Part shown: positions 2,691 through 26,500 of the stretch, piece after piece
How positions within the stretch are numbered: position 1 is the first letter of the stretch
Layout of the letters: every line of letters begins with the position of its first letter
From: Nemertoderma westbladi
Taxonomy: Eukaryota > Animalia > Xenacoelomorpha
Assembly (NCBI GenBank): GCA_032718475.1
Contig: JAUCBJ010001565.1
Coordinates: 1 to 35,213 of the forward strand
Length of the DNA stretch: 35,213 bases
Reading direction: 5' to 3'
Translations under genes and position numbers: made by a program
The notes under the pieces: model-generated
The model's database searches: none
What the model saw: the letters and a program-made list of their open reading frames with translations, nothing else
Told to the model about the DNA's origin: nothing

Positions 2691-2819
2691 TTAACGTTTA
2701 CACCCCAATTCCGCTTGGTTTATATCTTGATTATCAATAAAATAGTAACGTGAAATATTTATGGAGCGTATATTTGAGAATGTTGAAATAATGCGTTTAG
2801 TAGTGTGACCAGCGTCTTG

Positions 2820-3541
2820 AATTTCCGCTTACCTCTAGCGGCAGACTGGAGAAATGCAGATCGACCACCTTCCTCAGAAAGACGCAGCATGTGCTCTAGT
2901 ACATATGCCAATATTCACTTTAAATAAATTAATATCAAGGAATTGGGGACAGTTATACATTTCGCCCTCTAGCGGCAGACTGGAGGACTCCAGACCGTTT
3001 ACTGCCCACCAAAGACTCAGGCCGACTTCTACTACATATCTGCTACGTTTCAGCTTGAACGGATCATAAATAACGAGATGGGAGAAAGATTTCACTTTCA
3101 AACATTTCGCCCTCTAGCGGCAGACTGAAGAACTGCACACGGATTAGCCTTCAATTCAATTCAATTCAATTCCTTCTTTCAAAGTCACAGCTAATGGTCT
3201 AGTACATATCTGCCAAATTTCAGCATAAATGGATTAAAAGCAAAGAAATGGGAGGACATTTAACGTTTAGACATGTGGCCCTCTAGCAGGAGACTATTGC
3301 TCTGATGGTGTCTGAAAGTCTCTCAAACGTCTCAACTTTAGCTCATATTGATACCTACAAATTTTCAACTTGGCAGCTTTAAATCCGACAAAGTTATTAG
3401 CATGTCAAAATCGTAACGACGACGACGACGACGACAACGACGACGACGACGACGACAACTATTTGCATAAATTGACCCACCCCCTAACAGTGTCAATTCG
3501 CTAAGGCTCCGCCAACTTCGTGGCTCGCCCCACATAATAAT
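2820..3541 (-). mobile_element. Probable Helentron-associated (HINE/DINE-1-like) non-autonomous element nested in the MULE
   Basis: On the minus strand: TATTATTA start, short GC-rich inverted repeat (~3505-3532), (GTC)n microsatellite (3416-3458), then four degenerate ~135-170-bp subrepeats marked by CCTCTAGCGGCAGACT (near 2832, 2966, 3111, 3281). Confidence 0.55.
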
Positions 3542-4979
3542 ACTGTAGGCCTATCTGGTAAGCAGTATTGCTGTATTGCAGAATACTGAATTCATAATTT
3601 AGAGTGTTGTCCGTACATTTTGTGTGTTGTCAACAGACATTTGACTGTTTTCCTACGACTTGCCGGCGATATGCGGAACTGAAACTTGGCAGAATTACTT
3701 TTAGGGCTGCGATCTACTATTATTCACATTGTTTATGGCCATTTTTGATAATGGTCAACCATTTTTTTTACTGTGGCTGACTGTTGTCACCGTTTTTAGG
3801 TATTGTCACAAATTCCACCTATCCGGATTATAGGGCAACAACAATAATAGATAGAAATAATAAATAGCAGAAGGTTTTTCATTTCAGACATTTCGCTCTC
3901 TTAGCGGTAGACTGTAGAACTGCAGATGGTTTAGCGTCCCCACGAAGACGAAGCAAGGGGTCTAGTAAATATCTTCCACAGATTATCCTTTACAGATTAT
4001 AAACTCCGAACCGGCAGGTTGGGCTCCTATTGGGCCGAGTTGGTGTCGCGAATTCCATCATATGGTGGATGTTGAGAAGCCAGAGACATTCGATCCTGTT
4101 CCGATTCGTTCAGTTGCTGCCAATGTTCCTGCCATTGGGGCTCGGTTTGAATCCACTGCGTGTTGAGTCCACTGGATGCCAGCTAGTGTTGGGGGACTTT
4201 GGATATGGCTGTATGTCATATAAGGATGCTGGAGGTTGTTCAGCTGGCTCTGGGCTGACACTATTGCTTAGACAGGGGCCTATCATATAAAGCAGTACCA
4301 AGTACAGCTTGCAAGTTGGCTTATTACTAGGCCAGTAGCGAAAAGCAGCGGGTAGAAAGTAGCCATCAGTAGCGAGTGAACAGTGGGAAAGTAGTGAGTA
4401 AATTGTTAAAACAGAAAGTAACTTAAGAAAATGTTTCATGTCGATTTTTTTGTAACTCGCGCATTTTATTAATTTACTTTCTACTTTCCTCTACAACATG
4501 TCCTGCAAAGCATATCCCAAATATACAGTTGCTGTTTAAATTGAGTAAATGAACCCCCCTAATTTTTCTTTAAATTATAATGAGATTGCATGAAATTGAA
4601 ACGGAGATAGTTTGACAACCCGACTTTTTTCTGGATTATTCCAAATTCCTATCTTCGCAAAAAATATCAGAATCAGAGCTGGAAAAGTATTTTTTTTCTT
4701 CAAATGTTAAGGTCAAGTTAAAAGTATCATTTTATTAAATCCAAAAAGCAAATGTACCGGTGGTTCAGTGCAGTACTGCAATATTAAATGTCTTGTATTA
4801 TAGTGTCTTAATTCAGTGCCTTCCCCCGATCCCTAATCTATATTTGATCGCATGAAATTTGAAACAGAGATAGTTTCACCTCCCTCCTCCTTCGCGGGTG
4901 AGCAAGAATTTATATTTTAGTTTTCAATCTTAAGCTAAAAGCGTTTAAATAGGTTTCTCCTTCGATACTGCACCAGTTC

Positions 4980-5171
4980 GGCACTGGTTCGATATGGGTC
5001 ACCCATTTTTTTTATATAAATATAAATCATTTATAGGTACTTTATAAGAGTTTTTGCACATTAATAAATATAATTAATATATATAATATTTATGTATTAT
5101 ATATATATTATATATTTTATAGGTGAGTTTGTAAAATTTCCAAATTGGGTGACCCATATCGAACCAGTGCC
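4980..5171. mobile_element. 192-bp MITE with ~26-bp TIRs and an 8-bp TSD
   Basis: GGCACTGGTTCGATATGGGTCACCCA ... TGGGTGACCCATATCGAACCAGTGCC; ACCAGTTC at 4972-4979 and 5172-5179; very AT-rich interior. Confidence 0.88.
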
Positions 5172-5653
5172 ACCAGTTCCACGTCCACCGCAGTCATTAT
5201 TCATTTATTCAACCTCATAACTAGATAAGTCATTTATCAGATAGCAAGCCAGCATAGCCAACTATATACAAAGCCATATAGCCAGGATGAATAATTTAAT
5301 TTTAATTGTAATTCTAGTGAAAAAATGAAAGATGTAAGTATTAATCTGAAATTAAAAAGTAAAATACTTTTCAAGCTCTGCTCTGAATTCAATCGTTTGG
5401 AAAATTATCGTCAGTCGATATAGCACTAATCGTACCACAGGATCTATCCATTGTTCTTGTATCTCTGGTGGATGGGTTGTATTGCGATGGGTAAGATTGG
5501 CTACAGATGGATGGGTAGTATTGAGAGGAATCCAGATCTGTAAATATTCCGAATTTCAATATCACTATATTCACTATAAATTAAATAAATAACTTATTTA
5601 ATTAATATTTAATTAATTTATATTGGTAGACAGACCCCTTGTCAGCCGCATAA

Positions 5654-5832
5654 GGCAGCGTTCACACTACCGAGTCAAAGTCAAAGTCAAAAGACAAAAT
5701 GTAAATCACAAAACATGAAATTTATTTTTTTCTAGAATCCCCTGATGTATTATTATTTATTATTGCTAGCTAACTATATTTATTTTATTTTGACTTTTAC
5801 TTTGACTTTGACTCGGTAGTGTGAACGCGGCC
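5654..5832. mobile_element. PIF/Harbinger (Tourist-like) MITE
   Basis: TIRs GGC(A/C)GCGTTCACACTACCGAGTCAAAGTCAAAGT at both ends; TAA TSD at 5651-5653 and 5833-5835. Confidence 0.85.
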
Positions 5833-6054
5833 TAACAGTTGTTTCAATAAAAAAAAATAGGAAATATGTTCGAAATCGAAAGTTGAATGGTTTTCCTATT
5901 TGTAAGACTTTACTATCAAACCATTCAAGAACACCATAAAAATAAAGAATAAAAATGCGATATTCAAGAATACGGAAACTATAATACCGCCGTTAACAGC
6001 TAATACTCATCGCAATCAATTATGTCCGTTTAAACGGAAAGTATTACTACAGTA

Positions 6055-7850
6055 CACCATGATCCGTAATACAGTGTCATTTTCTGATGACACGGGCCCC
6101 CCAGATTTTTCTACAAATCTTTACCATATTGCTTTAACTTTGAAACACAACTAGTTCCACTCACCGTCGTTGACCCCATGAAGCCGGAATTTTCGATTTT
6201 GCCCTTTAACTATTTTTTATAAGCGTTTTAAAAAAGTGTTTTTTTGCGAAATCGCACCCTCCGTGACGTGGCCATTCTCCACATTACCTCCGTGACGTGG
6301 CCATTCTCCACATTAGTCGTAATTTTATTCTATTCTAATTAATTTTATAGTTTCACCTCCTTCCTCCTCCGTGGGTGAGCCAGAATTTTTATTTTTGCTT
6401 TCATTCTTTAGCTACAAGCGTTTAAAAAAAGTGTCTCCGTCGATATTGCTTGCACCAGTTACACCGCAGTTATTCTTCAAACATTTAGTGATTTGTTGGT
6501 ACTAGACAGCTGACCGTGCAAGGATTCCAAATATGTAAAAACATTTGAATTTTGTTGGGAAATAGCTGAGATGAGGGCATTTTAATTTCGCATGTATTAG
6601 CTTCCACTGCAGGCCATTTATTCTATTAAATAAATACACAATGTTCTAGAACATTTTGATTATGTATGAATATCCATATACTAGTATTATCATGTAGGCA
6701 TTGCATTGTTGCCAAACTACTGAGATAAACAAAATGTTCTAGAACATTGTGTATTTATTAAGTAGAATAAATGGCCTGCAGCGGAAGCAAATACATGCAA
6801 AATTCGAACGCCAATAACTCAGCTATTTCCCAACCAAATTCACATATTTTTACATATTTGGAATCCTTGCACGGTCAGCTTTCTACTAGTACCAACAAAT
6901 CACTAAATGTTTCAAGAATAACTGCGGTGTAACTGGTGCAATATCGACGAGGACACTTTTTTTTAAACGCTTGTAGCTAAAGAATGAAAGCAAAAATAAA
7001 AATTCTGGCTCACCCAGCAAGGAGGAGGACACTATATTCCACTGAATAACGACACTATATTCCAGGACATGGTGTATAAATTTCGTTGAGAAACATCAGT
7101 CTTTGAAAGCCTATATCTCAGCTGTTTCTCAACGAAATTCATAATATTGTGTTACATAATTCGAATCCTTGTAACGCAATCTTTCTAATGATATGAAAAG
7201 AATACGACTAATGTGAAGAATGGCCGCGACATGGAGGTGCGATGTCGCAAGACACTTTTTTAAAACGCTTATAAAAATATTTTTTAGGCTATCAAAGATA
7301 GCAATAATTATTGTTCGGTGTAGGCAATTTTTTCTATTTAATAAATACACAATATTCTAGAACGTGTTATTTATTTTATGAGTTGGTAGGCAACAGCGGT
7401 TTTCATATCCAATATATCTATTGCGTAGCTATTCATACATAAACAAAATGTTCCAGAACATCGTGTATTTATTAAATAGAATAAATGGCCTTCAGCAAAG
7501 GATAATTCTTGCAATCTTTGAACGCCTGTATCTCAGCTATTTCTCAACGAAATTCAGATATTGTTACATATTTTTGGACTCCTTGCAACGCAAGCTTTTT
7601 AATGATATGGAATAATTACGACTAATGTGAAGAATAGCCACGATGCGGAGGGTGCAATTTCGCAAAACACTTTTTTAAAACTCTTATTAAAATTTAAAGG
7701 CAAAATTGAAAATTCCGGCTTCATGGGGTCAACGACGGTGAGTTGAACTATTTGTGTTTCAAACTTCAAACAATGTGATAAAGATTTGTATAAAAATCTG
7801 GGGGGGGACCCGTGTCATCAGAAAATGACACTATATTACGGTTCATGGTG
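6055..7850. mobile_element. Non-autonomous long-TIR element with TA TSD (Tc1/mariner-like), containing an internal foldback
   Basis: TA|CACCATGATCCGTAATACAGTGTCATTTTCTGATGACACGG ... CCGTGTCATCAGAAAATGACACTATATTACGGTTCATGGTG|TA. Inverted similarity extends >200 bp. A second inverted pair lies at ~6360-6660 / ~6725-7030. Confidence 0.8.
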
Positions 7851-8229
7851 TAATAGGAATAGGTAGGTACTAATTAATAGGTAGGTAGGGGGTTCCGATG
7901 GGGGTGTTGGTTTGGGGGGGCGAAGGCCGCCTCTCACATTCCCAACCATCCTCGCTACGTCACTATGCATCTGAATAAGATAAATAAGCAAATGAACATG
8001 GACGAGTAATCAGTAGGCAGAGTTATGTGCAGAAGTAGGCCTACTGGTATAATATAAGCTATTGCAAAGGTAGACGAGTCTATACAGGAATATGCCACGC
8101 CATAAGTCATTTTTTTGTAATAAAAACTAGTAAAATAAATTAAATGTACATAAATTTGTAAATAAAATGGTATTAATAAATACTAGCAATAATTTGCCAT
8201 TGGTAATAAAAACTAGTAATAACTATTTA

Positions 8230-9475
8230 TTCCAAAATTGTAACATTACTCAACGCCGTTAGTATTAACAGCGAGTTGTTATTTAGCACTTTACAACTTT
8301 AGAGGACATTACAGCATTGTATTGGCCTGTACATTTAGTATTGTATTTGGTGTTAATGTCCCCTTAGTGGACATTACTTAACGCCGTCATGGGTTACCAC
8401 GTAAACAATCGGTGGAAATTTGCCTGACAGCCAGATAGGCCTACTGCATTACCTAGCGGTAGGCGGGGTATAGCTATTAATAACCAGTAGGACCTAGCTA
8501 TATTATTATAACATGGCTCCAAACGCCACCATAAATATAACCTAACTTATTTATAACATAATTTATGTCATTTTTACATTTATTTATACAGCAACTAATA
8601 TAATTTGTGCACTTTCTATCACTTATAATGTATATGCACAATCATTTCGTAATGTTAACATTTTGGAAAACTACATACATACTTGTTGCAAAGTACTTTA
8701 CAGTGTTCTGTTCCTCGTGGCTTTATTTTCACTCACTCACTAACGTTCGTTCGTGTAACAAAGCCACTCGGATCATCACACTGTAAAGTGCTACTTTACA
8801 CACAAGTATGTAAATAGTTATTACATACCTTTGTTGTAAAGTAGCAGTTACAGTAGTAACAGTAGTTGTTACAGTGTGATGATGTGTAAAGTAGCACTTT
8901 ACAGTGTGCTGATCCGAGTGGCTTTGATACACTAACTAACGTTAGTGAGTGAGTGAAAATAAAGCCACGAGTATCAGAACACTGTAAAGTACTTTGCAAC
9001 AAGTATGTATGTAGTTTTATTCCAAAATGTTAACATTACGAAATGATTGTATATATATATTATAAGTGAAAGAAACTACACAAATTATATTAGTTGCTGT
9101 ATAAAGAAATTAAAAAATGACATAAATTATGTTATAAATAAGTTAGCTTATATTTATGGTGGCGTTTGGAGCCATGTTAATAGTTTATAGCTACTGGTTA
9201 TTAATTTATACCGGTAGATAATGCAGTAGGCCTGGCTGTCAGGCAATTAATTATGAATGCCACCTATTGTTTACGTGGTAACCAATGACGCCGTAACTTT
9301 ACATCTCACCGTCATTGGTTACCACATAAACAACGGACATTACAACACTCAATACAATACTAAATGTACAGGCAAATACAATGCTGTAATGTCCTCTAAA
9401 GTTGTAAAGTGCTAAATAACAACACGCTGTTAATACTAACGGCGTTGAGTAATGTTTCAATTTGAAAATTTGGAA
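8230..9475. repeat. Large imperfect palindrome (foldback) with ~570-bp arms and ~80-bp spacer
   Basis: 8242 AACATTACTCAACGCCGTTAGTATTAACAGCG... pairs with ...CGCTGTTAATACTAACGGCGTTGAGTAATGTT 9456. The inner ends are near 8804 and 8884. Confidence 0.9.
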
Positions 9476-9892
9476 AATAAAATTGTATTAATAAATACTA
9501 GCAATAATTAATATTTATATACAATGTAAATAGGACATATGATAATGCTGTCCATAGCAAAAAATTCACTTATTCACAATTCACTTATTATTAATAATTA
9601 ATATTCTCACTCCAACAGCATATCTGCAAACCTAATATTATCAATTAAGAAAATTATTATTTATTTAAATTTATGCAATTAATTCTTTTGTTAGAAAGCA
9701 AATGGCATTAACTAGCAAATACGACACAGCAAATTGTTAGTTTTAATTTAATGAATTCAGCAAAAGCAAGCAAACAGTCGGCCGAAGCCGGAGGCGACCC
9801 GAAGGCTCCTCCTTCGATAGCTGCTACCCGAAGAGTCTCTAGTCTTCATTTAATCGACCCATATGGATGGATGGAAAGGCTGAATGGTCGAT

Positions 9893-9952
9893 GACTGGTC
9901 TCGAACCTACAACCAATAGATTGTAAGACCGGAGCCCAACCAACTAAGCTCC
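9893..9952 (-). mobile_element. Degenerate tRNA-like segment, probably a tRNA-derived SINE head
   Basis: Minus strand GGAGCTTAGTTGGTTGGGCTCCGGTCTTACAATCTATTGGTTGTAGGTTCGAGACCAG has A-box-like and B-box-like (GGTTCGAGAC) motifs at tRNA spacing, but no convincing acceptor stem. Confidence 0.45.
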
Positions 9953-9953
9953 A

Positions 9954-10912
9954 TTAGCAGGTCCGCGTAGCGAGACCTCTAGTATTCACTCCGTTAGTAG
10001 GTCCGCGTAGCGAGACCTCTAGTATTCACTCCGTTAGTAGGTCCACGTAGCGAGACCTCTAGTATTCACTCTGTTAGTAGGTCCGCGTAGCGAGACCTCT
10101 AGTATTCACTCCGTTAGTAGGTCCACGTAGCGAGACCTCTAGTATTCACTCTGTTAGTAGGTCCGCGTAGCGAGACCTCTAGTATTCACTCCGTTAGTAG
10201 GTCCACGTAGCGAGACCTCTAGTATTCACTCCGTTAGTAGGTCCACGTAGCGAGACCTCTAGTATTCACTCCGTTTTTAGGTCCGCGTAGCGAGACCTCT
10301 AGTATTCACTCCGTTAGCAGGTCAACGTAGCGAGACCTCTAGTATTCACTCCGTTAGTAGGTCCGCGTAGCGAGACCTCTAGTATTCACTCTGTTAGTAG
10401 GTCCGCGTAGCGAGACCTCTAGTATTCACTCTGTTAGTAGGTCCGCGTAGCGAGACCTCTAGTAATCACTCCGTTAGTAGGTTCGCGTAGCGAGACCTCT
10501 AGTATTCACTCCGTTAGTAGGTCCACGTAGCGAGACCTCTAGTATTCACTCCGTTAGTAGGTCCGTGTAGCGAGACCTCTAGTATTCACTCCGTTAGTAG
10601 GTCCGCGTAGCGAGACCTCTTAGTATTCACTCCATTAGGTAGGTCCGCGTATCGAGACCTCTAGTATTCACTCCGTTAGTAGGTCCACGTAGCGAGACCT
10701 CTAGTATTCACTCCGTTTTAGGTCCGTGTAGCGAGACCTCTAGTATTCACTCCGTTTTTAGGTCCGCGTAGCGAGACCTCTAGTATTCATTCCGTTAGTA
10801 GGTCCGCGTAGCGAGAACTCTAGTATTCACTCCGTTAGTAGGTCCACATAACAAGACCTCTAGTATTCACTCCGTTAGTAGGTCCGCGTAGCGAGACCTC
10901 TAGTATTCACTC
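9954..10912 (+). repeat. 40-bp tandem array (TTAGTAGGTCCGCGTAGCGAGACCTCTAGTATTCACTCCG)n, about 24 copies
   Basis: Directly visible; each unit holds a small hairpin GGTC-CGC-GTA-GCG-A-GACC followed by TCTAGT. Confidence 0.97.
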
Positions 10913-11144
10913 AGTTGTTGTTGTTGGCGGTGTTAATATCCAGTTAGCATTTAGTTTTATAAGGCTTCCTACAGCAACGTGTCAAAGTTGGAAAAGCGTG
11001 GGACTGAGAATCTCTAGGTACCGAGTTCAATCCCACCTTTCCGGTGAATTATTTTGGTAGTAAGATTGGTAAGCCATTCAAGGAGACAGTTCTTACGTTA
11101 GCGGTTAGTAGACGCGGACCTTTGCGCGATTTCGCGTTGTTTTT
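9954..11144 (+). mobile_element. HINE/Helentron-type non-autonomous element whose 5' terminus is tandemly amplified
   Basis: 5' subterminal AGGTCCGCGT, (GTT)4 at ~10914-10925, matching inverted ACGCGGACCT at 11112-11121, hairpin CGCGATTTCGCG at 11125-11136, then a T-tract. Confidence 0.6.
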
Positions 11145-11240
11145 ATAGCTATAAAACACGAGTGATAACTTTTGTCTAAATATAAACCATTAAATATATT
11201 TATAATAATGCACTAAGTCTATGATTATAGATAAACAGAC

Positions 11241-11426
11241 CTCAGAGACTCTCTTTTCTGATGTTCCTCCGGTTTTGAATGTAGCAATCTCCCCAGCAGC
11301 GGTGTTTTCCCTACCATTTTCATCCTTACTGTACGCGGTGACACGGGTATCGTAATCCGCTCCAGCTTCCAATCCCTCAATCATAGACTGTTGCTCCTCG
11401 TGCCACATTGGGACAGGCTCCGAAGT
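11241..11426 (-). CDS. Nrg: Exon of the same L1/neuroglian-family gene: C-terminal half of the membrane-proximal fibronectin type III domain
   Basis: TSEPVPMWHEEQQSMIEGLEAGADYDTRVTAYSKDENGRENTAAGEIATFKTGGTSEKRVSE has the FN3 I.GL..G..Y..RV.A motif. Acceptor TTTCTATTGCTAG, donor GAG|GTCTGT. 186 nt, phase 0-0, joins in frame to the exon at 1225. Confidence 0.78.
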
Positions 11427-11710
11427 CTAGCAATAGAAATTGGTGTTTCTGTTGAATACCTTTTTTTATTATAATTATATCACTACATCACTACATCACA
11501 ATCTGACAGTAACTTTATAGAAGGAATACAGCAAATTGAATAGAACAAACCGTCTTCCAAAAACAAATGCAAGTAATATCCTTTTTAACAGACTTCGGAT
11601 GTGATTAAATAACTTAATAATATGCTAAAAATCAACATTTCATTCAATTCAACATTACCAACCACTCTCACACCTCCTTACAACTCTATCAGACTTTCTG
11701 TACACTATAG

Positions 11711-11896
11711 GGGTAGGTGTAAAACGCGGATCCGGATCCGGATCCGGATTCAGGATCCGGATACGGATCAGGACCCGGATTTGCGAGTGTAAAAGGCGGA
11801 TCCGGATTTACATACAATCCGTAACTGAGTGTAATATGCGGATTCTGAAATACGCAATCCGTATTGCAGTGTAAAACGCGGATTCATATATTTTGT
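11711..11896 (+). mobile_element. Left TIR-like terminus with subterminal GTGTAAAACGCGGAT motifs
   Basis: GGGTAGGTGTAAAACGCGGATCCGGATC (11711-11738) matches the reverse complement of 31464-31491 at 26 of 28 positions. Confidence 0.7.
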
Positions 11897-13100
11897 GAAT
11901 CCGGAATGGAGTGTAAAATACGGATTTACGTTAATTACCAAGTTTTATTGGATCCGGAATGGAGTGTAAAACACGGATTTTCGTTAATTATCAAGTTTTG
12001 TTGGATCCGGAATGGAGTGTAAAACACGGATTTTCGTTAATTACCAAGTTTTGTTGGATCCGGAATGGAGTGTAAAATACGGATTTACGTTAATTACCAA
12101 GTTTTATTGGATCCGGAATGGAGTGTAAAACACGGATTTTCGTTAATTATCAAGTTTTGTTGGATCCGGAATGGAGTGTAAAACACGGATTTTCGTTAAT
12201 TACCAAGTTTTGTTGGATCCGGAATGGAGTGTAAAACACGGATTTTCGTTAATTACCAAGTTTTATTGGATCCGGAATGGAGTGTAAAACACGGATTTTC
12301 GTTAATTATCAAGTTTTGTTGGATCCGGAATGGAGTGTAAAACACGGATTTTCGTTAATTACCAAGTTTTGTTGGATCCGGAATGGAGTGTAAAACACGG
12401 ATTTTCGTTAATTACCAAGTTTTGTTGGATCCGGAATGGAGTGTAAAACACGGATTTTCGTTAATTACCAAGTTTTATTGGATCCGGAATGGAGTGTAAA
12501 ACACGGATTTTCGTTAATTATCAAGTTTTGTTGGATCCGGAATGGAGTGTAAAACACGGATTTTCGTTAATTACCAAGTTTTGTTGGATCCGGAAAGGAG
12601 TGTAATTCGTTAATTACCAAGTTTTGTTGGATCCGGAATGGAGTGTAAAACACGGATTTTCGTTAAATACCAAGTTTTGTTGGATCCGGAATGGAGTGTA
12701 AAACACGGATTTTCGTTAATTACCAAATTTTGTTGGATCCGGAATGGAGTGTAAAACACGGATTTACGTTAATTACCAAGTTTTATTGGATCCGGAATGG
12801 AGTGCAAAACACGGATTTATGTTAATTACCAAGTTTTATCGGATCCGGAATGGAGTGTAAAACACGGATTTTCGTTAATTACCAAGTTTTGTTGGATCCG
12901 GAATGGAGTGTAAAACACGGATTTTCGTTAATTACCAAGTTTTAATGGATCCGGGAAGGGGTGTAAAACGCGGATTCAATTTATTTACCAAGTGTTACTA
13001 GATCCGGGAAGGGGTGTAAAACGCAGATTGATTCAGGTTGATTACAAAAGTGTTACTGGATCCGGGAAGGGGTGTAAAATGCGGATTTACGTTAATTACT
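11897..13100 (+). repeat. 53-bp tandem array (GGATCCGGAATGGAGTGTAAAACACGGATTTTCGTTAATTACCAAGTTTTGTT)n, about 22 copies, related to the TIR motif
   Basis: GGATCC at 11950, 12003, 12056, 12109, ...; variants recur in groups of about three units; the last units are degenerate. Confidence 0.96.
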
Positions 13101-13107
13101 GAGTTTG

Positions 13108-13182
13108 TTAATGAGGGACACAACTATTAATGAGGGACACACATTAATGAGGGACACAAACATTAATGGGGGACACCTTAAT
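13108..13182. repeat. 19-bp repeat (TTAATGAGGGACACAAACA-like), 4 copies
   Basis: Directly visible between the 53-bp array and the retroelement 3' region. Confidence 0.9.
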
Positions 13183-13184
13183 AG

Positions 13185-16026
13185 TAATTATCAATTAAGA
13201 AAGTTAATTATTACAAACAAATAGAAATACTACAATAATGAAGCACAAATTATAAAAAGCATCTCAGAATAGAGACAAATTACAAAGGGGGCGGGGGAAT
13301 AAGAGTTATAAGGGGGAGGGGAGATGGGATAGGGGGAGCGGGGAACGCAAGTGGAGGAGCCTAGGAGACGAGGTCCAACAGACCCTCGTCCGTGGACCTA
13401 ATCGATCCTAAGATCGAAGCGGCATTGCCGATCTGAATGGCAATGAGGAGCCTCTGTAGGAGGAATCGGTGCGACCGCGGCTCGTTGGTGACACTACGTA
13501 TACGGTCGCCGATCTCCTTCAGGAAACTGCGAGTGGAAGAGCCCGGACAGCCGTAGGTCTCAAAGGCAACCGGGGAGAAGATGTAGCCCCGGTCGACTAG
13601 CTCCCGGTATTTGGCTGTTTTCTTCTCCTCAGCCACCTCCGCAACGCGACCCCCAGCAGTCAGGGCAAGGTGTATGTGGCTGGGACAAAGGGGATCTACC
13701 ACAGTCGCATCCCAAGTGACGGATTTACCATGTTTCCATGGAACCATGGTTACTCCGTCGACTCGCTTCCCGCCACTCCTGCAGAGGCCTGGAGGTTCCA
13801 GCATAGCTGGGATCCTGCAGCTGGTCAACGCACGCTTAACCAGGTCATTGACCATGGCGTGGCGTGCGTGTCGCCCAGCGCTCCTCTTACAGGAGAGGCC
13901 ATGGAGACCGTTGGGTGCGACTGGGTCGTCACAGCGGGCGCATTTGTGAGGCTCGGTGACCGGGCTACCAAGGCGTATTGCGACTGCTACTTGCAACTGC
14001 GCGCCCGTAAGTTTCAGGCCCAGCGAGCTGACCGGAATGGCCTCAAGCCAGCAACCCGACACATCGTTCTTGATACAATTTAGGCGCGCAGTATCGAGTG
14101 GCAGTGCCCCCTCGCGGATGGAAGCAAGGGACGCCTCGTGGACCGGCTGTATCAGGACACGTTGTATGGCGTCAGTGGAGGAAGTGGCAGGTGGTGTGGT
14201 GCCAGTGTGGGAAGTAACTGTGGATGTGGTGTCAGTGGGAGAAGTGAGTGATGGTGTAGGTGCGGTGGCAGTGGGAACGTGAGTGTCTGTAAAAGTTGGA
14301 AGTTGTGCGTCCCGCGCGTTGGTAGCGAGGGCAATTGCAGGATCGGGGTGGCTCCCGTCCGTTCTAAATAGGCGGCCTGAGAGATCGGAGCATGCAGCCG
14401 CTGAGGCAATGAAAGCGGAAGGAGCGAGCACGCATGCTGAACTGATCCCCAGGCCACCCATCCGAACTGGGAGACAGGCCTGGTCCCACGATTTACCCCC
14501 CATGTCACAGTTGGTGATCTCCTGGAGCGCTCCACGGAGCGTCCGATCATACTCCTTAAGGAGCTCCTGGTGTGTGAAACACGGGGCAGCCCGAAGGAAG
14601 TAGACCAGACGAGGGATGGCAAAAGCGTTCTTTAAAAGGTAGAACGCGTGGTGCGCATCCAGGAGAGGGAGTCGTTTGGCGAGGGTGGAGAGGTCGCTGA
14701 TCTTCTCGCGGAGACAGGAGACCATAGCGGAGTCGCCGATGGGTGCACCGAGCATCTCTAGATCTTCGAGCGAGGTGGTAAGGATGCCTGGGCACACCGT
14801 CTCGAACTCCGCAGCGATCTCCAGACGGATCGAATTGGAGACCTCTCCAACTATAAAAAGCTCGGTCTTCTTAGGGTTGATCTCCAACCCGAGCCGCTTC
14901 CCCTCACCCATCACCGTATGTAGGTCCTCCAACACCGTCCGGTGGTCTCCGGCAAGGTTACCATCGTCCAGGTACCAAACGTTGAAGTCAGACTTCATTG
15001 AATGGACCAGGTCGACGGAGGTGTCGCCGAAGAGGGCCGGTCCATCTGCATCACCCTGTTGAATTCCCTCTTCCGAGAGGAGTATCTCATCCCCGTGGAA
15101 AAGGTAGCTTGGCTTGCCATAGGCAGCCAGAGTGTAGTTATACACTTGAGGGTGATTTCGATGGACCGTCTCTAGGATGGAGTCACGCCGGACGGAGTTG
15201 AAGGCGTTCCGAAAGTCCAGTTTCAGTAGAACAGTGCCAGGCGCGGAGGTGGTATTGATTAACGCCCGGGTCGCGTGGGCGGCAGCCTCGGCACCGTTCT
15301 TAGTCCCGATTCCCAGTTGGACGTCCCCGTAGGACTGACTCCGATCCCCACTGACGAGGTGCCCCGAGTATTTGGATGCCAGCCGCCGGAGGGTAAGTCC
15401 GACGGCTATTGGGCGAACCCCGTTGTCAGGTTTACTGAATGCGAAGAGGTTCGCCCCGAAGAAAACCGGTCGAATAACCGGGGGAACCTCGCCAGCGAGC
15501 ACGATCTCAGTGAACCGACACAGACCTTTCAGGAGCCGAGTCGCGGGAGCTCCGTTTGAAGGATCGACGAGGTCCTTCAAGACCTGTGGCCGGAGCCCGT
15601 CCGGTCCACCTGCGCTGCCGGGCGGGAAGGAAGCGATCTTCTGCTTGAGGACCGCCGGGTAGCAGGTGGGCCGGGGGAGATCGGTGGGAGGGGGAGGGGT
15701 TCGGAAGTCAGCCGGACGGGGGGGATGCTTCCCTCGCAGTTTCTCCAACGTCTCGGGGGTATTCGGCGCGAAGGTGGAGGTGGATGAGGCCAGCCGAATA
15801 GCCCCCTTGACGTCGCCGTCCTCGATCTTCTCAGCGACGGTGGTGGCCAGCCGTTCCTCGTCGCTGAGATTGCTCCCCCGCTTGCGATGGGATGGTGAAT
15901 CCGGCGGAGCCTGCAGGGGGTTGGCGCGGAACTCCAGGATGTTCCCGTTGACCTGCAAGGCCAGGGAGCGTTGGTGACGCCCTCCAGCCCGCGCCGGTGC
16001 GGGGATACACCGGGCGCTAAAGGTCA
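13185..16026 (-). mobile_element. 5'-truncated CRE-clade (RLE) non-LTR retrotransposon
   Basis: GC-rich block with an abrupt switch to AT-rich DNA at ~16030; C-rich then T-rich 3' UTR. The 3' boundary is uncertain. Confidence 0.85.
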
Positions 16027-16029
16027 GCT
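13361..16029 (-). CDS. Reverse transcriptase plus restriction-like endonuclease (RLE) protein of a CRE-clade non-LTR retrotransposon, 5'-truncated
   Basis: RT motifs SAGGPDGLRP, KPDNGVRPIAVG, KLDFRNAFNS, GIQQGD, WYLDDG, GLEINPKK; thumb LPVRMGGLG; CCHC knuckle CARC..HGLSC; RH..VN; RLE KRVDG..WDAT..EEKKTAKY..FETYG; C-terminal IQIGNA. The frame stays open upstream of the tracked ORF start (15958) to 16029 and has no true start. Confidence 0.92.
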
Positions 16030-16977
16030 AAAGGTCATTTAAAGTTACTTATTGAGAAAAATTTTTAATATTTAAAATCACTAACGCAGATCAGGCTGTC
16101 AGTATCAGCAGGCCGTAATAAATATCTCGCTCTAAGTTCCTTCTCTAGCATTAGTGTCCTAATCTTAGACACACTTTGTAAAATAAAACAAAATGGCTAA
16201 TAAATTATTCCTACACTACTGAAATAGTATAAATATTATGTACATTTTCTGAAGTAAGGCTCTCATTTCAGATCAATTCCTCATAATGTTAAATCATCTT
16301 AATGAGATTGACTCTAACACCGCTCCCTAAATTTATAGTATATTTCATAGTTACAGTATTACATTAATATGTTAATTGTAGCTTACCTACACTTACTAAT
16401 TATAATATTTAAAGTATATTGCCTAATTGCTTGTGTTGTTTCTACAACAATACAGTGGATATTATTTTCAATTTGAGGTAACATTCATATATTACAGTAC
16501 GTTATTCATAGCGCTGTTTTTAATGTTTCAACTTTAAGTGCAATTTCCCGCTAATTAAAATTTCCCGATCTTTGTGTGTTTAGGTATATATCTCTTGATT
16601 GGTTTGGTAAATTTCTATGAAATTTTCAATGAGTCTAGAATAATAAATTGAGCATGTTTTGTTCTAAAAGCACATCATACAGAGTTGACAAAATTTCGAA
16701 AACCAGTAAAATTGGTTACTCTATGAAACTGAACAATTTAAAACTTGTGCCCCTGAGGCCGTAATAAATATTTTTAAACTATCCTAAATAAAAGTTGTCT
16801 GAAAAGCCATAAAACATGATTGCCAAATTCCAAGGCAAAACCTTTTCTACATGCACACTTATGTGTCCTACATTTATATAGAAGACTTGTGTCCTTATGG
16901 GGGTGCCCTTAAGTTCACTATTGTCTGTTGTGACTCGCGATAGAACCCCGGTTTATTTTTAACTATTTTATTTTCAG

Positions 16978-17099
16978 CTGTGGCCTCGATAGACCCCCCA
17001 CCAGTATATGTTGTTATCGCCGGTGTTGAACCCGTTATGTTTACCAATTTATTTCCTTATTGGCGCCGTGACTCGGAAATAGCAACGGCCAACCGATTG
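16978..17099 (+). CDS. SVIL: Supervillin-like exon, end of the last gelsolin-like repeat
   Basis: VASIDPPPVYVVIAGVEPVMFTNLFPYWRRDSEIATANRL resembles supervillin Y.I.AGLEP..FTN.FP.W. Acceptor TATTTTATTTTCAG, donor TTG|GTGAGT; ends in phase 0. Confidence 0.85.
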
Positions 17100-17344
17100 G
17101 TGAGTTGTGACTGACTACACACATAAATGAGTACCAGTTAAATTACTTGGGAGCAAAACATGGGATAAGAGTAGCGCCCACCCCTATTTTCGGGTAGCAG
17201 ATAGGAGTAGCGCCAACCCCAACCCCCGGGTAGCAACTATCGAAAGATGAGCCTTCGGGTCGCCTCCGGTTTCGGCCGACTGTTTGTTTGCTTGTATCGG
17301 AATTCCATTAATAATTGTATTAATATTATAAACATTTTATAAAG

Positions 17345-17509
17345 GAATACAAATTGGAACCAGATGAATTTCCCGTGCTCAAGGCAACCGATGTGTTGCG
17401 GACTTTAACAGAAATCCGTCTAACTTACCAACAGATCCTAATCCATGACCTTCCGGAGGGAGTTGACCCTCACAAGTTGGAGACCTACCTGGACGATACA
17501 GAGTTCCAG
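17345..17509 (+). CDS. SVIL: Supervillin-like exon, linker and N-terminal part of the villin headpiece
   Basis: EYKLEPDEFPVLKATDVLRTLTEIRLTYQQILIHDLPEGVDPHKLETYLDDTEFQ contains the LPEGVDP.KLE.YL motif. Acceptor TTTTATAAAG, donor CAG|GTTAGT; 165 nt, phase 0-0. Confidence 0.9.
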
Positions 17510-20500
17510 GTTAGTCGGAGACCTACCTGGACGATACAGAGTTCTAGGTTAGTTGGAGACCTACCTAGACGATACAGAGTTCCAGGTTAGTTGGAGACCT
17601 ACCTGGACGATACAGAGTTCCAGGTTAGTTGGAGACCTACCTGGACGATACAGAGGGTCAGGTTAGTTGGGAAACCTACCTGGACGATACAGAGTTCCAG
17701 GTTAGTTGGAGACCTACCTGGACGATACAGAGTTCCAGGTTAGTTGGAGGCCTACCTGGACGATACAGAGTTCCAGGTTAGTTGGAGACCTACCTGGACG
17801 ATACAGAGTTCCAGGTTAGTTGGAGACCTACCTGGACGATACAGAGTTCCAGGTTAGTTGGAGACCTACCTGGACGATACAGAGTTCCAGGTTAGTTGGA
17901 GACCTACCTGGACGATACAGAGTTCCACGTTAGTTGGAGACCTACCTGGACGATACAGAGTTCCAGGTTAGTTGGAGACCTACCTGGACGATACAGAGTT
18001 CCAGGTTAGTTGGAGACCTACCTGGACGATACAGAGTTCCAGGTTAGTTGGAGACCTACCTGGACGATACAGAGTTCCAGGTTAGTTGGAGACCTACCTG
18101 GACGATACAGAGTTCCAGGTTAGTTGGGGACCTACCTGGACGATACAGAGTTCCAGCAGGTTAGTTGGAGACCTGGACGATACAGAGTTCCAGGTTAGTT
18201 GGAGACCTACCTGGACGATACAGAGTTCCAGGTTAGTTGGAGACCTACCTGGACGATACAGAGTTCTAGGTTAGTTGGAGACCTGTACGATACAGAGTTC
18301 CAGGTTAGTTGGAGACCTACCTGGACGATACAGAGTTCCAGGTTAGTTGGAGACCTACCTGGACGATACAGAGTTCCAGGTTAGTTGGAGACCTACCGGG
18401 ACGATACAGAGTTCCATGTTAGTTGGAGACCTACCTGGACGATACAGAGTTCCAGGTTAGTTGGAGACCTACCGGGACGATACAGAGTTCCAGGTTAGTT
18501 GGAGACCTACCTGGACGATACAGAGTTCCAGGTTAGTTGGGGACCTACCTGGACGATACAGAGTTCCAGAAGGTTAGTTGGAGACCTGGACGATACAGAG
18601 TTCCAGGTTAGTTGGAGACCTACCTGGACGATACAGAGTTCCAGGTTAGTTGGAGACCTACCTGGACGATACAGAGTTCCAGGTTAGTTGGAGACCTACC
18701 TGGACGATACAGAGTTCCAGGTTAGTTGGAGACCTACCTGGACGATACAGAGTTCCAGGTTAGTTGGAGACCTACCTGGACGATTCAGAGTTCCAGGTTA
18801 GTTGGAGACCTACCTGGACGATACAGAGTTCCAGGTTAGTTGGAGACCTACCTGGACGATACAGAGTTCCAGGTTAGTTGGAGACCTACCTGGACGATAC
18901 AGAGTTCCAGGTTAGTTGGAGACCTACCTGGACGATACAGAGTTCTAGGTTAGTTGGAGACCTACCTGGACGATACAGAGTTCCAGGTTAGTTGGAGACC
19001 TACCTGGACGATACAGAGTTCCAGGTTAGTTGGAGACCTACCTGGACGATACAGAGTTCCAGGTTAGTTGGAGACCTACCTGGACGATACAGAGTTCCAG
19101 GTTAGTTGGAGACCTACCTGGACGATACAGAGTTCCAGGTTAGTTGGAGACCTACCTGGACGATACAGAGTTCCAGGTTAGTTGGGGACCTACCTGGACG
19201 ATACAGAGTTCCAGCAGGTTAGTTGGAGACCTGGACGATACAGAGTTCCAGGTTAGTTGGAGACCTACCTGGACGATACAGAGTTCCAGGTTAGTTGGAG
19301 ACCTACCTGGACGATACAGAGTTCTAGGTTAGTTGGAGACCTGGACGATACAGAGTTCCAGGTTAGTCGGAGACCTACCTGGACGATACAGAGTTCTAGG
19401 TTAGTTGGAGACCTACCTGGACGATACAGAGTTCCAGGTTAGTTGGAGACCTACCTGGACGATACAGAGTTCCAGGTTAGTTGGAGACCTACCTGGACGA
19501 TACAGAGGGTCAGGTTAGTTGGGGACCTACCTGGACGATACAAAGTTCCAGGTTAGTTGGAGACCTACCTGGACGATACAGAGTTCCAGGTTAGTTGGAG
19601 GCCTACCTGGACGATACAGAGTTCCAGGTTAGTTGGAGACCTACCTGGACGATATAGAGTTCCAGGTTAGTTGGAGACCTACCTGGACGATACAGAGTTC
19701 CAGGTTAGTTGGAGACCTACCTGGACGATACAGAGTTCCAGGTTAGTTGGAGACCTACCTGGACGATACAGAGTTCCAGGTTAGTTGGAGACCTACCTGG
19801 ACGATACAGAGTTCCACGTTAGTTGGAGACCTACCTGGACGATACAGAGTTCCAAGTTAGTTGGAGACCTACCTGGACGATACAGAGTTCCAGGTTAGTT
19901 GGAGACCTACCTGGACGATACAGAGTTCCAGGTTAGTTGGAGACCTACCTGGACGATACAGAGTTCCAGGTTAGTTGGAGACCTACCTGGACGATACAGA
20001 GTTCCAGGTTAGTTGGGGACCTACCTGGACGATACAGAGTTCCAGCAGGTTAGTTGGAGACCTGGACGATACAGAGTTCCAGGTTAGTTGGAGACCTACC
20101 TGGACGATACAGAGTTCCAGGTTAGTTGGAGACCTACCTGGACGATACAGAGTTCTAGGTTAGTTGGAGACCTGTACGATACAGAGTTCCAGGTTAGTTG
20201 GAGACCTACCTGGACGATACAGAGTTCCAGGTTAGTTGGAGACCTACCTGGACGATACAGAGTTCCAGGTTAGTTGGAGACCTACCGGGACGATACAGAG
20301 TTCCATGTTAGTTGGAGACCTACCTGGACGATACAGAGTTCCAGGTTAGTTGGAGACCTACCGGGACGATACAGAGTTCCAGGTTAGTTGGAGACCTACC
20401 TGGACGATACAGAGTTCCAGGTTAGTTGGGGACCTACCTGGACGATACAGAGTTCCAGAAGGTTAGTTGGAGACCTGGACGATACAGAGTTCCAGGTTAG

Positions 20501-23500
20501 TTGGAGACCTACCTGGACGATACAGAGTTCCAGGTTAGTTGGAGACCTACCTGGACGATACAGAGTTCCAGGTTAGTTGGAGACCTACCTGGACGATACA
20601 GAGTTCCAGGTTAGTTGGAGACCTACCTGGACGATACAGAGTTCCAGGTTAGTTGGAGACCTACCTGGACGATACAGAGTTCCAGGTTAGTTGGAGACCT
20701 ACCTGGACGATACAGAGTTCCAGGTTAGTTGGAGACCTACCTGGACGATACAGAGTTCCAGGTTAGTTGGAGACCTACCTGGACGATACAGAGTTCTAGG
20801 TTAGTTGGAGACCTACCTGGACGATACAGAGTTCCAGGTTAGTTGGAGACCTACCTGGACGATACAGAGTTCCAGGTTAGTTGGGGACCTACCTGGACGA
20901 TACAGAGTTCCAGGTTAGTTGGAGACCTACCTGGACGATACAGAGTTCCAGGTTAGTTGGAGACCTACCGGGACGATACAGAGTTCCAGGTTAGTTGGAG
21001 ACCTACCTGGACGATACAGAGTTCCAGGTTAGTCGGAGACCTACCTGGACGATACAGAGTTCCAGGTTAGTTGGAGACCTACCTGGACGATACAGAGTTC
21101 CAGGTTAGTTGGAGACCTACCTGGACGATACAGAGTTCCAGGTTAGTTGGAGACCTACCTGGACGATACAGAGTTCCAGGTTAGTTGGAGACCTACCTGG
21201 ACGATACAGAGTTCCAGGTTAGTTGGAGACCTACCTGGACGATACAGAGTTCCAGGTTAGTTGGGGACCTACCTGGACGATACAGAGTTCCAGCAGGTTA
21301 GTTGGAGACCTGGACGATACAGAGTTCCAGGTTAGTTGGAGACCTACCTGGACGATACAGAGTTCCAGGTTAGTTGGAGACCTACCTGGACGATACAGAG
21401 TTCTAGGTTAGTTGGAGACCTGGACGATACAGAGTTCCAGGTTAGTCGGAGACCTACCTGGACGATACAGAGTTCTAGGTTAGTTGGAGACCTACCTGGA
21501 CGATACAGAGTTCCAGGTTAGTTGGAGACCTACCTGGACGATACAGAGTTCCAGGTTAGTTGGAGACCTACCTGGACGATACAGAGGGTCAGGTTAGTTG
21601 GGGACCTACCTGGACGATACAGAGTTCCAGGTTAGTTGGAGACCTACCTGGACGATACAGAGTTCCAGGTTAGTTGGAGACCTACCTGGACGATACAGAG
21701 TTCCAGGTTAGTTGGAGACCTACCTGGACGATACAGAGTTCTAGGTTAGTTGGAGACCTACCTGGACGATACAGAGTTCCAGGTTAGTTGGAGACCTACC
21801 TGGACGATACAGAGTTCCAGGTTAGTTGGAGACCTACCTGGACGATACAGAGTTCCAGGTTAGTTGGAGACCTACCTGGACGATACAGAGTTCTAGGTTA
21901 GTTGGAGACCTGTACGATACAGAGTTCCAGGTTAGTTGGAGACCTACCTGGACGATACAGAGTTCTAGGTTAGTTGGAGACCTGGACGATACAGAGTTCC
22001 AGGTTAGTTGGAGACCTACCTGGACGATACAGAGTTCCAGGTTAGTTGGAGACCTACCTGGATGATACAGAGTTCCAGGTTAGTTGGAGACCTACCTGGA
22101 CGATACAGAGTTCCAGGTTAGTTGGAGACCTACCTGGACGATACAGAGTTCCAGGTTAGTTGGAGACCTACCTGGACGATACAGAGTTCCAGGTTAGTTG
22201 GGGACCTACCTGGACGATACAGAGTTCCAGCAGGTTAGTTGGAGACCTGGACGATACAGAGTTCCAGGTTAGTTGGAGACCTACCTGGACGATACAGAGT
22301 TCCAGGTTAGTTGGAGACCTACCTGGACGATACAGAGTTCTAGGTTAGTTGGAGACCTGTACGATACAGAGTTCCAGGTTAGTTGGAGACCTACCTGGAC
22401 GATACAGAGTTCCAGGTTAGTTGGAGACCTACCTGGACGATACAGAGTTCCAGGTTAGTTGGAGACCTACCGGGACGATACAGAGTTCCATGTTAGTTGG
22501 AGACCTACCTGGACGATACAGAGTTCCAGGTTAGTTGGAGACCTACCTGGACGATACAGAGTTCCAGGTTAGTTGGGGACCTACCTGGACGATACAGAGT
22601 TCCAGAAGGTTAGTTGGAGACCTGGACGATGCAGAGTTCCAGGTTAGTTGGAGACCTACCGGGACGATACAGAGTTCCAGGTTAGTTGGAGACCTACCTG
22701 GACGATACAGAGTTCCAGGTTAGTCGGAGACCTACCTGGACGATACAGAGTTCCAGGTTAGTTGGAGACCTACCTGGACGATACAGAGTTCCAGGTTAGT
22801 TGGAGACCTACCTGGACGATACAGAGTTCCAGGTTAGTTGGAGACCTACCTGGACGATACAGAGTTCCAGGTTAGTTGGAGACCTACCTGGACGATACAG
22901 AGTTCCAGGTTAGTTGGAGACCTACCTGGACGATACAGAGTTCCAGGTTAGTTGGAGACCTACCTGGACGATACAGAGTTCTAGGTTAGTTGGAGACCTA
23001 CCTGGACGATACAGAGTTCCAGGTTAGTTGGAGACCTACCTGGACGATACAGAGTTCCAGGATAGTTGGAGACCTACCTGGACGATACAGAGTTCCAGGT
23101 TAGTTGGAGACCTACCTGGACGATACAGAGTTCCAGGTTAGTTGGAGACCTACCTGGACGATACAGAGTTCCAGAAGGTTAGTTGGAGACCTGGACGATA
23201 CAGAGTTCCAGGTTAGTTGGAGACCTACCTGGACGATACAGAGTTCCAGGTTAGTTGGAGACCTACCTGGACGATACAGAGTTCCAGGTTAGTTGGAGAC
23301 CTACCTGGACGATACAGAGTTCCAGGTTAGTTGGAGACCTACCTGGACGATACAGAGTTCCAGGTTAGTTGGAGACCTACCTGGACGATTCAGAGTTCCA
23401 GGTTAGTTGGAGACCTACCTGGACGATACAGAGTTCCAGGTTAGTTGGAGACCTACCTGGACGATACAGAGTTCCAGGTTAGTTGGAGACCTACCTGGAC

Positions 23501-26500
23501 GATACAGAGTTCCAGGTTAGTTGGAGACCTACCTGGACGATACAGAGTTCTAGGTTAGTTGGAGACCTACCTGGACGATACAGAGTTCCAGGTTAGTTGG
23601 AGACCTACCTGGACGATACAGAGTTCCAGGTTAGTTGGAGACCTACCTGGACGATACAGAGTTCTAGGTTAGTTGGAGACCTGGACGATACAGAGTTCCA
23701 GGTTAGTCGGAGACCTACCTGGACGATACAGAGTTCCAGGTTAGTTGGAGACCTACCTGGACGATACAGAGTTCCAGGTTAGTTGGAGACCTACCTGGAC
23801 GATACAGAGTTCCAGGTTAGTTGGAGACCTACCTGGACGATACAGAGTTCCAGGTTAGTTGGGGACCTACCTGGACGATACAGAGTTCCAGCAGGTTAGT
23901 TGGAGACCTGGACGATACAGAGTTCCAGGTTAGTTGGAGACCTACCTGGACGATACAGAGTTCCAGGTTAGTTGGAGACCTACCTGGACGATACAGAGTT
24001 CTAGGTTAGTTGGAGACCTGTACGATACAGAGTTCCAGGTTAGTTGGAGACCTACCTGGACGATACAGAGTTCCAGGTTAGTTGGAGACCTACCTGGACG
24101 ATACAGAGTTCCAGGTTAGTTGGAGACCTACCTGGACGATACAGAGTTCCAGGTTAGTTGGAGACCTACCTGGACGATACAGAGTTCCAGGTTAGTTGGA
24201 GACCTACCTGGACGATACAGAGTTCTAGGTTAGTTGGAGACCTGTACGATACAGAGTTCCAGGTTAGTTGGAGACCTACCTGGACGATACAGAGTTCCAG
24301 GTTAGTTGGAGACCTACCTGGACGATACAGAGTTCCAGGTTAGTTGGAGACCTACCTGGACGATACAGAGTTCTAGGTTAGTTGGAGACATACCTGGACG
24401 ATACAGAGTTCCAGGTTAGTTGGAGACCTACCTGGACGATACAGAGTTCCAGGTTAGTTGGAGACCTACCTGCACGATACAGAGTTCCAGGTTAGTTGGA
24501 GACCTACCGGGACGATACAGAGTTCCATGTTAGTTGGAGACCTACCTGGACGATACAGAGTTCCAGGTTAGTTGGAGACCTACCTGGACGATACAGAGTT
24601 CCAGGTTAGTTGGGGACCTACCTGGACGATACAGAGTTCCAGAAGGTTAGTTGGAGACCTGGACGATACAGAGTTCCAGGTTAGTTGGAGACCTACCGGG
24701 ACGATACAGAGTTCCAGGTTAGTTGGAGACCTACCTGGACGATACAGAGTTCCAGGTTAGTTGGAGACCTACCTGGACGATACAGAGTTCCATGTTAGTT
24801 GGAGACCTACCTGGACGATACAGAGTTCCAGGTTAGTTGGAGACCTACCTGGACGATACAGAGTTCCAGGTTAGTTGGAGACTTACCTGGACGATACAGA
24901 GTTCCAGGTTAGTTGGAGACCTACCTGGACGATACAGAGTTCCAGGTTAGTTGGAGACCTACCTGGACGATACAGAGTTCCAGGTTAGTTGGAGACCTAC
25001 CTGGGCGATACAGAGTTCCAGGTTAGTTGGAGACCTACCTGGACGATACAGAGTTCAAGCAGGTTAGTTGGAGACCTACCTGGGCGATACAGAGTTCCAG
25101 GTTAGTTGGAGACCTACCTGGACGATACAGAGTTCCAGAAGGTTAGTTGGAGACCTACCGGGACGATACAGAGTTCCAGGTTAGTTGGAGACCTACCGGG
25201 ACGATACAGAGTTCCATGTTAGTTGGAGACCAACCTGGACGATACAGAGTTCCAGGTTAGTTGGAGACCTACCTGTACGATACAGAGTTCCAGGTTAGTT
25301 GGAGACCTACCTGGACGATACAGAGTTCCAGGTTAGTTGGAGACCTGGACGATACAGAGTTCCAGGTTAGTTGGAGACCTACCTGGACGATATAGAGTTC
25401 CAGGTTAGTTGGAGACCTACCTGGACGATACAGAGTTCCAGGTTAGTTGGAGACCTACCTGGACGATACAGAGTTCCAGGTTAGTTGGAGACCTACCTGG
25501 ACGATACAGAGTTCCAGGTTAGTTGGAGACCTACCTGGACGATACAGAGTTCCAGGTTAGTTGGAGACCTACCTGGACGATACAGAGTTCCAGGTTAGTT
25601 GGAGACCTACCTGGACGATACAGAGTTCCAGGTTAGTTGGAGACCTACCTGGATGATACAGAGTTCCAGGTTAGTTGGAGACCTACCTGGACGATACAGA
25701 GTTCCAGGTTAGTTGGAGACCTACCTGGACGATACAGAGTTCCAGGTTAGTTGGGGACCTACCTGGACGATACAGAGTTCCAGCAGGTTAGTTGGAGACC
25801 TGGACGATACAGAGTTCCAGGTTAGTTGGAGACCTACCTGGACGATACAGAGTTCCAGGTTAGTTGGAGACCTACCTGGACGATACAGAGTTCTAGGTTA
25901 GTTGGAGACCTGTACGATACAGAGTTCCAGGTTAGTTGGAGGCCTACCTGGACGATACAGAGTTCCAGGTTAGTTGGAGACCTACCTGGACGATATAGAG
26001 TTCCAGGTTAGTTGGAGACCTACCTGGACGATACAGAGTTCCAGGTTAGTTGGAGACCTACCTGGACGATACAGAGTTCCAGGTTAGTTGGAGACCTACC
26101 TGGACGATACAGAGTTCCAGGTTAGTTGGAGACCTACCTGGACGATACAGAGTTCCAGGTTAGTTGGAGACCTACCTGGACGATACAGAGTTCCAGGTTA
26201 GTTGGAGACCTACCTGGACGATACAGAGTTCCAGGTTAGTTGGAGACCTACCTGGACGATACAGAGTTCCAGGTTAGTTGGAGACCTACCTGGACGATAC
26301 AGAGTTCCAGGTTAGTTGGAGACCTACCTGGACGATACAGAGTTCCAGGTTAGTTGGGGACCTACCTGGACGATACAGAGTTCCAGCAGGTTAGTTGGAG
26401 ACCTGGACGATACAGAGTTCCAGGTTAGTTGGAGACCTACCTGGACGATACAGAGTTCCAGGTTAGTTGGAGACCTACCTGGACGATACAGAGTTCTAGG

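Follow-up and report, generated by a model that had tools for sequence, protein, structure and literature searches.

Opposite-strand, back-to-back last exons of an L1-type adhesion gene and a supervillin gene in Nemertoderma westbladi

We analysed a stretch of 35,213 nt from Nemertoderma westbladi (contig JAUCBJ010001565.1, hereafter the window), gap-free animal DNA with 0 N. The last exons of an L1-type adhesion gene (11426-11241 and 1225-1026, minus strand) and of a supervillin gene (last three exons, 16978-29287, plus strand) were confirmed to lie back to back on opposite strands. Reading frames are open and splice sites canonical in all five exons, each of which is intact. Contigs from four of six runs (X1-X4) were compared with the window over 10930-11790 and 13180-17474, while X5 and X6 (share 0.00) were left out. 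X1 to X3 are DNA runs. Run X4 is labelled 'DNA?' and behaves as RNA, as judged from its spliced contigs for both genes, while the unique intron DNA next to the L1 exon is not covered in it. The following features were assigned:

1-1075, minus strand: 53-bp array of the 3' end of the L1 transmembrane exon plus splice donor, 20 donor copies, running off the window
1026-1225, minus strand: L1-family transmembrane and juxtamembrane exon, acceptor used in an X4 contig, donor at 1026 predicted
11241-11426, minus strand: last FN3 exon of the L1-family gene, phase 0/0, both sides spliced in X4 contig 29 with 0 differences
11427-35213, minus strand: putative L1 intron, 23,787 bp or longer, provided that the gene is contiguous
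11661-11710, no strand given: fragment of a high-copy repeat whose continuation is known from other copies
11711-13106, plus strand: end of a high-copy element with terminal motif, leading into a 53-bp tandem array (11891-13106)
13193-16028, minus strand: non-LTR retroelement with an 888-codon uninterrupted open RT frame (RVT_1), 5'-truncated at 16028
16029-16977, plus strand: end of the supervillin upstream intron, multi-copy repeats at about 16189-16780, then unique DNA and acceptor
16978-17099, plus strand: third-last supervillin exon, starting in phase 1 and joined by splicing to sequence farther upstream in X4 contig 31
17345-17509, plus strand: second-last supervillin exon, linker and first half of the headpiece
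17475-29012, plus strand: 38-bp array, about 305 copies of the second-last supervillin exon end plus donor, with a higher-order pattern
29201-29287, plus strand: last coding supervillin exon with stop, acceptor at 29201 or 29204
31310-31491, minus strand: second, inverted end of the element family seen at 11711, with flanks unlike those of 11711

The FN3 exon spans 186 nt (62 codons), is open and is bounded by AG and GT. It matched Pfam fn3 with an E-value of 0.011, below the Pfam cut-off, and P0001 weakly in a pairwise comparison (E 0.029), and a PDB search returned two matches, both irrelevant. The transmembrane exon matched P0001, which carries fn3 and Bravo_FIGEY, with an E-value of 1.5e-7, and the two exons are spliced together in X4 contig 29. 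An FN3 domain followed by a transmembrane helix and an L1-type juxtamembrane motif identifies the gene as a member of the L1CAM/neuroglian family. Proteins of this family carry six Ig and five FN3 domains and a FIGQY tail, the rest of which would here lie outside the window.

The three supervillin exons join in compatible phases and are followed by AATAAA at 29487 and 29792. The last exon matched VHP with an E-value of 9.9e-09, above the cut-off, the best PDB match was supervillin 2k6m (E 0.00068, with villin at 0.017), and P0011, a gelsolin/headpiece protein, matched all three exons at 52, 54 and 42% identity. The predicted product comprises the end of the last gelsolin repeat, a linker and a headpiece, and is by sequence nearer to supervillin than to villin. 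Supervillin has a long N-terminal region and further gelsolin repeats, which would lie outside the window. A homolog search with the second-last exon (17345-17509) yielded no match among 26 candidates. Matches to P0003 and P0008 were set aside as chance, and metagenome contigs gave 0 exact matches and 0 confirmed out of 311 pattern matches.

Tandem copies occur at three of the splice junctions in the two genes. Besides the array on the L1 transmembrane exon, these are the 11.5-kb array at 17475-29012, with 254 exact donor-like copies and 38 unit variants, and the acceptor of the last supervillin exon, duplicated as 2 x 38 bp at 29136-29212. Tandem copies of exon-intron boundaries are described from amphioxus as 'mirages' (PMC3087553), which the junctions copied here resemble (20+ units of 53 bp, 305 of 38 bp and two of 38 bp), whereas the 11.5-kb array is far longer than the 3-6 units that PMC3087553 gives for BflGb6. 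The exon-end arrays are a side feature of a known kind and do not explain the arrangement of the two genes. Other repeats in the window include an LTR retrotransposon at 32092-35213, with LTRs 97.6% identical and gag-like, RT, RNase H and integrase pieces in separate interrupted frames. The L1 intron between the two late exons holds closed fold-back elements (1507-3824, 6053-7852, 6362-7026 and 8235-9463) with long inverted arms 82-95% alike, one of them with an internal 13-bp array, and a 40-bp tandem array of 24 copies (9949-10916) for which no exon link was seen. An extremely abundant short repeat, whose summed depth across the DNA runs X1-X3 exceeds 170,000, occurs at 9748-9830 and at 17148-17311, the latter inside the 245-bp supervillin intron.

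The spliced contigs of X4 carry both genes beyond the exons of the window. Contig 29 (2652 nt) agrees with 11426-11241 in 186/186 bases. One of its loose ends is the exon starting at 1225, with an exact match at 1195-1224, and its other end extends from the window's own L1 acceptor for 2124 nt upstream. The first 30 letters of this extension translate in frame as RRRAAEDEWS (by hand), which by eye resembles the last FN3 domain of P0001, and a search of the window for this 30-letter 3' end of the exon just upstream in the L1 gene, allowing up to 3 mismatches, gave 0 matches. In contig 31 (1141 nt), 16978-17099 is spliced to 17345, with removal of a GT..AG intron of 245 nt. The contig shows 0 differences across 252 nt of supervillin exon and continues for 296 nt upstream of exactly 16978. 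This extension was absent among the matches listed on 13180-17474 and 10930-11790. Trans-spliced leaders are shorter than 296 nt, and a leader was rejected as the source of the extension because of its length. Since both contigs carry upstream extensions, both genes have heads, and their neighbouring upstream exons lie outside the window; spliced contigs do not tell which genomic copy was transcribed, and an identical copy elsewhere is possible. The preliminary description, made from the DNA letters, had called the two genes headless. This holds for the window taken alone and fails for the genes, both of which produce spliced transcripts with upstream sequence. As readings it had offered, with no preference among them, a captured or duplicated supervillin 3' fragment in an L1 intron, a rearrangement breakpoint near 16030, a mis-join and antisense interleaving.

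Its further claim that the window contains no other exon of either gene was borne out, for supervillin by an ORF screen and for the L1-family gene by the letters of the upstream exon. A phmmer search with P0011 against 704 ORF pieces (14,998 unmasked bases) recovered the three known supervillin exons only, the next hit having an E-value of 0.69, and a conserved 40-residue block just upstream gave 113 against a distant supervillin and at best 37 in the window. For the L1-family gene the ORF-piece screen is insensitive, as the known FN3 exon itself reached only E 7.2, and the absence of a further L1 exon therefore rests on the transcript-derived upstream sequence. The preliminary description had also named, as a case that would refute it, a short transcript that starts at 16040-16970 and accounts for the plus-strand exons; we saw none and find no support for one. 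More generally, the supervillin exons could form a separate headpiece-only transcript with a non-coding first exon inside the L1 intron, and the segments 1-10929, 11791-13179 and 17475-35213, which lie outside the comparison with the 296-nt extension, would leave room for such an exon. The absence of the extension from the compared stretches argues against this, as does the start of exon 16978, which begins in phase 1 at the residue where the distant supervillin prediction P0005 departs from the canonical sequence (by eye). We regard a separate short transcript as highly improbable.

Multi-copy repeats are stacked over the roughly 5 kb that separate the two unique anchors. On the L1 side, 11138-11690 is contained in one contig in both X1, at a depth of 16.2 and with 0 differences, and X2, at a depth of 19.9 and with a single 8-bp gap. 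From 11690 to about 16700 everything is multi-copy or haplotype-level, and no contig in X1-X4 bridges 11690 to 16692. Other copies of the 11661-11710 repeat run on into sequence for which the window offers no exact match. An X3 contig crosses the junction at 11710 by 25 nt. Short 19-bp repeats separate the 53-bp array from the non-LTR retroelement, a putative CRE-like element with a restriction-like endonuclease. Its family is near-identical and multi-copy in all four runs, including the RNA-like X4, with core contigs at a depth of about 100 vs 16-20 for the exon contigs in X1 and X2. Other copies run on beyond 16028. No target-site duplication was found around 13193-16028 and the flanks do not match; there is a 10-bp local duplication at the truncated 5' end.

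At this end, X1 contig 6 (15999-16318) crosses 16028 with 0 differences at a depth of 8.8; roughly 30 of its letters lie left of 16028, at the margin of what counts as bridging, and the source sample may be X1 itself. Farther right, X1 reached a summed depth of 84-130 over 16204-16779. X2 and X3 have no contig on 16065-16188 (by bin arithmetic), which amounts to lack of cover. A joint of 16064 to 16449 in X1-X3 was dismissed, having a side of 27-28 nt and an above-single-locus depth, and probably represents another repeat copy. We interpret this 5-kb stretch as the debris of nested transposons. The preliminary description had seen about 0.9 kb of AT-rich DNA at 16030-16977, which proved largely multi-copy too, and a possible breakpoint near 16030. 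Sequence does run across 16030, as the X1 contig demonstrates, and 16028-16030 is the truncated 5' end of a retroelement and not by itself proof of a breakpoint, although the missing target-site duplication fits that suspicion. A template switch of the retroelement onto supervillin RNA was rejected because the supervillin fragment is antisense to the element and contains introns.

Such a stack raises the question of an assembly mis-join, in which the 53-bp array or the multi-copy retroelement would have linked two unlinked loci. The run of multi-copy or haplotype-level sequence, the high depth of the retroelement core contigs and the mismatched retroelement flanks would fit a mis-join. It is opposed by the contigs of X1 and X3 over the 16028 and 11710 junctions, neither of which covers the whole stack, and by a gap-free window in which the longest single repeat, at 2.8 kb, is shorter than typical long reads would be. 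The 0 N and the 11.5-kb array with its higher-order pattern suggest an assembly from accurate long reads, which should be able to cross repeats over 5 kb. We consider a mis-join improbable.

The window contains just two copies of the terminal motif of the element ending at 11711, the other at 31491. The two are oriented towards each other at a distance of 19.8 kb, with the whole supervillin tail between them, and the element family is very high-copy. Terminal-repeat DNA transposons of the Pack-MULE type are known to capture gene fragments. Two inverted ends of one element family around the supervillin tail could suggest such a capture, whereas no target-site duplication is shared by the two ends, the repeat broken off at 11661-11710 does not resume beyond 31491, and even in matched stretches the arms are only about 76-88% alike. 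Neither a target-site duplication nor a continuous empty site was found at 11711/31491, where the adjoining flanks differ, and a 7-mer shared by the flanks at unequal offsets is part of the low-complexity pattern of the terminal motif. A composite transposon spanning 11711-31491 is unsupported on these grounds.

We used contig depth and sequence differences to look for further copies of the two tails. Read depth is not copy number and is unreliable here by about two-fold, since the ratio of the supervillin-exon contig to the L1-flank contig was 1.08 in X2 and 1.84 in X3, both from the same sample (1.33 in X1). In X2 the L1-exon and supervillin-exon contigs had depths of 19.9 and 21.4. In X1 the L1 flank, the junction and the supervillin exon had depths of 16.2, 8.8 and 21.6, the last being a better fit to three copies (20.5-24.4) than to a heterozygous pair (12.4-15.6); the supervillin contig ends in a very high-copy repeat that may inflate this mean. 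X1, X2 and X3 share one non-window allele at 7 listed sites between 16782 and 16895, which together with the X1 depth leans towards an extra supervillin copy. The supervillin-side intron of the window differs from the contigs of both DNA samples by 10-13 substitutions and 11 gap bases, and the L1-side intron shows 0 substitutions against X1 and X2. X3 holds a second L1-side version (3 differences in 89 nt), so that the divergence on the supervillin side may be ordinary allelic variation. In a rough model, 0 exon differences beside a divergent intron are about 4 to 10 times likelier for a constrained than for a neutral copy (P0 0.39 vs 0.096, or 0.21 vs 0.02).

The supervillin tail could be a spare recent copy in the L1 intron, perhaps in some haplotypes only, or both tails could be unused inner copies of a tandem duplication of two convergent neighbours, with the working copies elsewhere. 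The three X1 depths would agree with one more supervillin copy or, should the single-locus depth of X1 be near 8, with a 2:1:2 tandem duplication. The contrast between the diverged supervillin side and the unchanged L1 side in X1 and X2 points the same way, and unequal crossing-over between two retroelement copies would create a junction without a target-site duplication. Set against this are the 0 differences from X4 in 252 supervillin and 186 L1 exon bases and the X2 ratio near unity. We judge extra copies to be unlikely, while keeping them as a serious contender. The half-depth junction in X1 (8.8 vs 16.2) and the missing target-site duplication would also suit a real inversion or translocation on the assembled haplotype, with a breakpoint in an intron of each gene and the other haplotype intact, and by geometry one inversion between two same-strand genes leaves two tails back to back. 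However, a heterozygous retroelement insertion explains the half depth equally well, and the rearrangement would knock out two conserved genes at once, so that we hold it to be quite improbable.

Our preferred reading, to which we assign a probability of about 45%, is a true tail-to-tail interleaving of the two genes, with introns of no less than 17 and 24 kb. Transcription of supervillin would enter from beyond position 1, proceed rightwards and stop near 29.3-29.8 kb; that of the L1-family gene would run leftwards from beyond 35213 and stop left of position 1. The last exons of the L1-family gene would lie inside one long supervillin intron (at least 16,977 bp if that gene is contiguous) and the last three supervillin exons, on the other strand, inside one long L1 intron, each gene splicing over the exons of the other as antisense intron. 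The window copies would be the transcribed ones and the upstream exons would be found on the same chromosome, to either side of the window. The window does hold two distinct protein-coding genes on opposite strands, as an interleaved antisense pair requires. Of supervillin, the part to the right of the L1 exon is limited to the last three exons, and no upstream exon of it was found in the window, so that the whole gene is not nested within one L1 intron. Tail-to-tail interleaving is favoured by the two X4 contigs, which match without difference and carry upstream sequence, by the 0 exon differences beside a divergent intron, by the five intact exons, by the like X2 depths of both exon contigs, by the signs of long accurate reads, and by the 10-12 kb introns that both genes already have here (10,015 and 11,691 bp). 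Evidence against it comes from the absence of any contig in X1-X4 that bridges 11690 to 16692, from the missing target-site duplication of the retroelement and the uncontinued 11661-11710 repeat, as at a breakpoint, and from the X1 depth nearer three copies and the non-window allele shared by X1-X3; a rare event would also be needed to swap two ancient coding tails.

The interleaved pair would likely have arisen from two convergent neighbours whose tail blocks swapped order without inversion, either by a local cut-and-paste move or by tandem duplication and loss of the outer copies. We think it rather improbable that the tails were swapped in one viable step and so recently that interleaved and non-interleaved haplotypes may still segregate. 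Here a 20-kb supervillin tail would have hopped between the transposon ends at 11711 and 31491, or tandem duplication would have been followed by reciprocal loss; if true, the birth of an interleaved gene pair would have been caught in the act.

If the tails are truly interleaved, the transcription units of two genes with broad roles collide head-on over 28 kb or more of common DNA, and each gene keeps essential coding exons, for a membrane anchor in one and an actin-binding headpiece in the other, within an intron of its partner. The locus would then be a clean case for studying the origin of interleaved pairs and the tolerance of convergent transcription, and gene predictors would be likely to split both genes. 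As a duplicate or a mis-join, it would be ordinary. We found no report of an interleaved supervillin and L1-family (neuroglian) pair in the parts of the literature consulted, and the locus is a probable new example of a known arrangement, one that works like an interleaved pair and is not proven as one. Among metazoans, gene pairs that are nested or interleaved are described as fairly common (PMC2291194). Nested genes are given as typically 5-10% of genes (PMC10282587), as mostly antisense (PMC3814207), and as faster evolving and narrowly expressed (PMC2291194, PMC3814207, PMC10282587). As in the pairs these accounts describe, opposite-strand coding genes would here have exons in each other's introns, given the presumed linkage. 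Unlike the nested genes described there, neither gene is contained in the other, and the overlap involves terminal coding exons that are ancient and belong to long, conserved genes. The Drosophila pair Dync2h1 (btv) and CG5674, called 'strongly mutually nested' (PMC10556659), is similar in that a large conserved gene has the exons of an antisense gene spread through its introns (PMC10556659). In that account all CG5674 exons lie within btv introns, whereas the two genes here would meet tail to tail, each extending beyond the other (PMC10556659).
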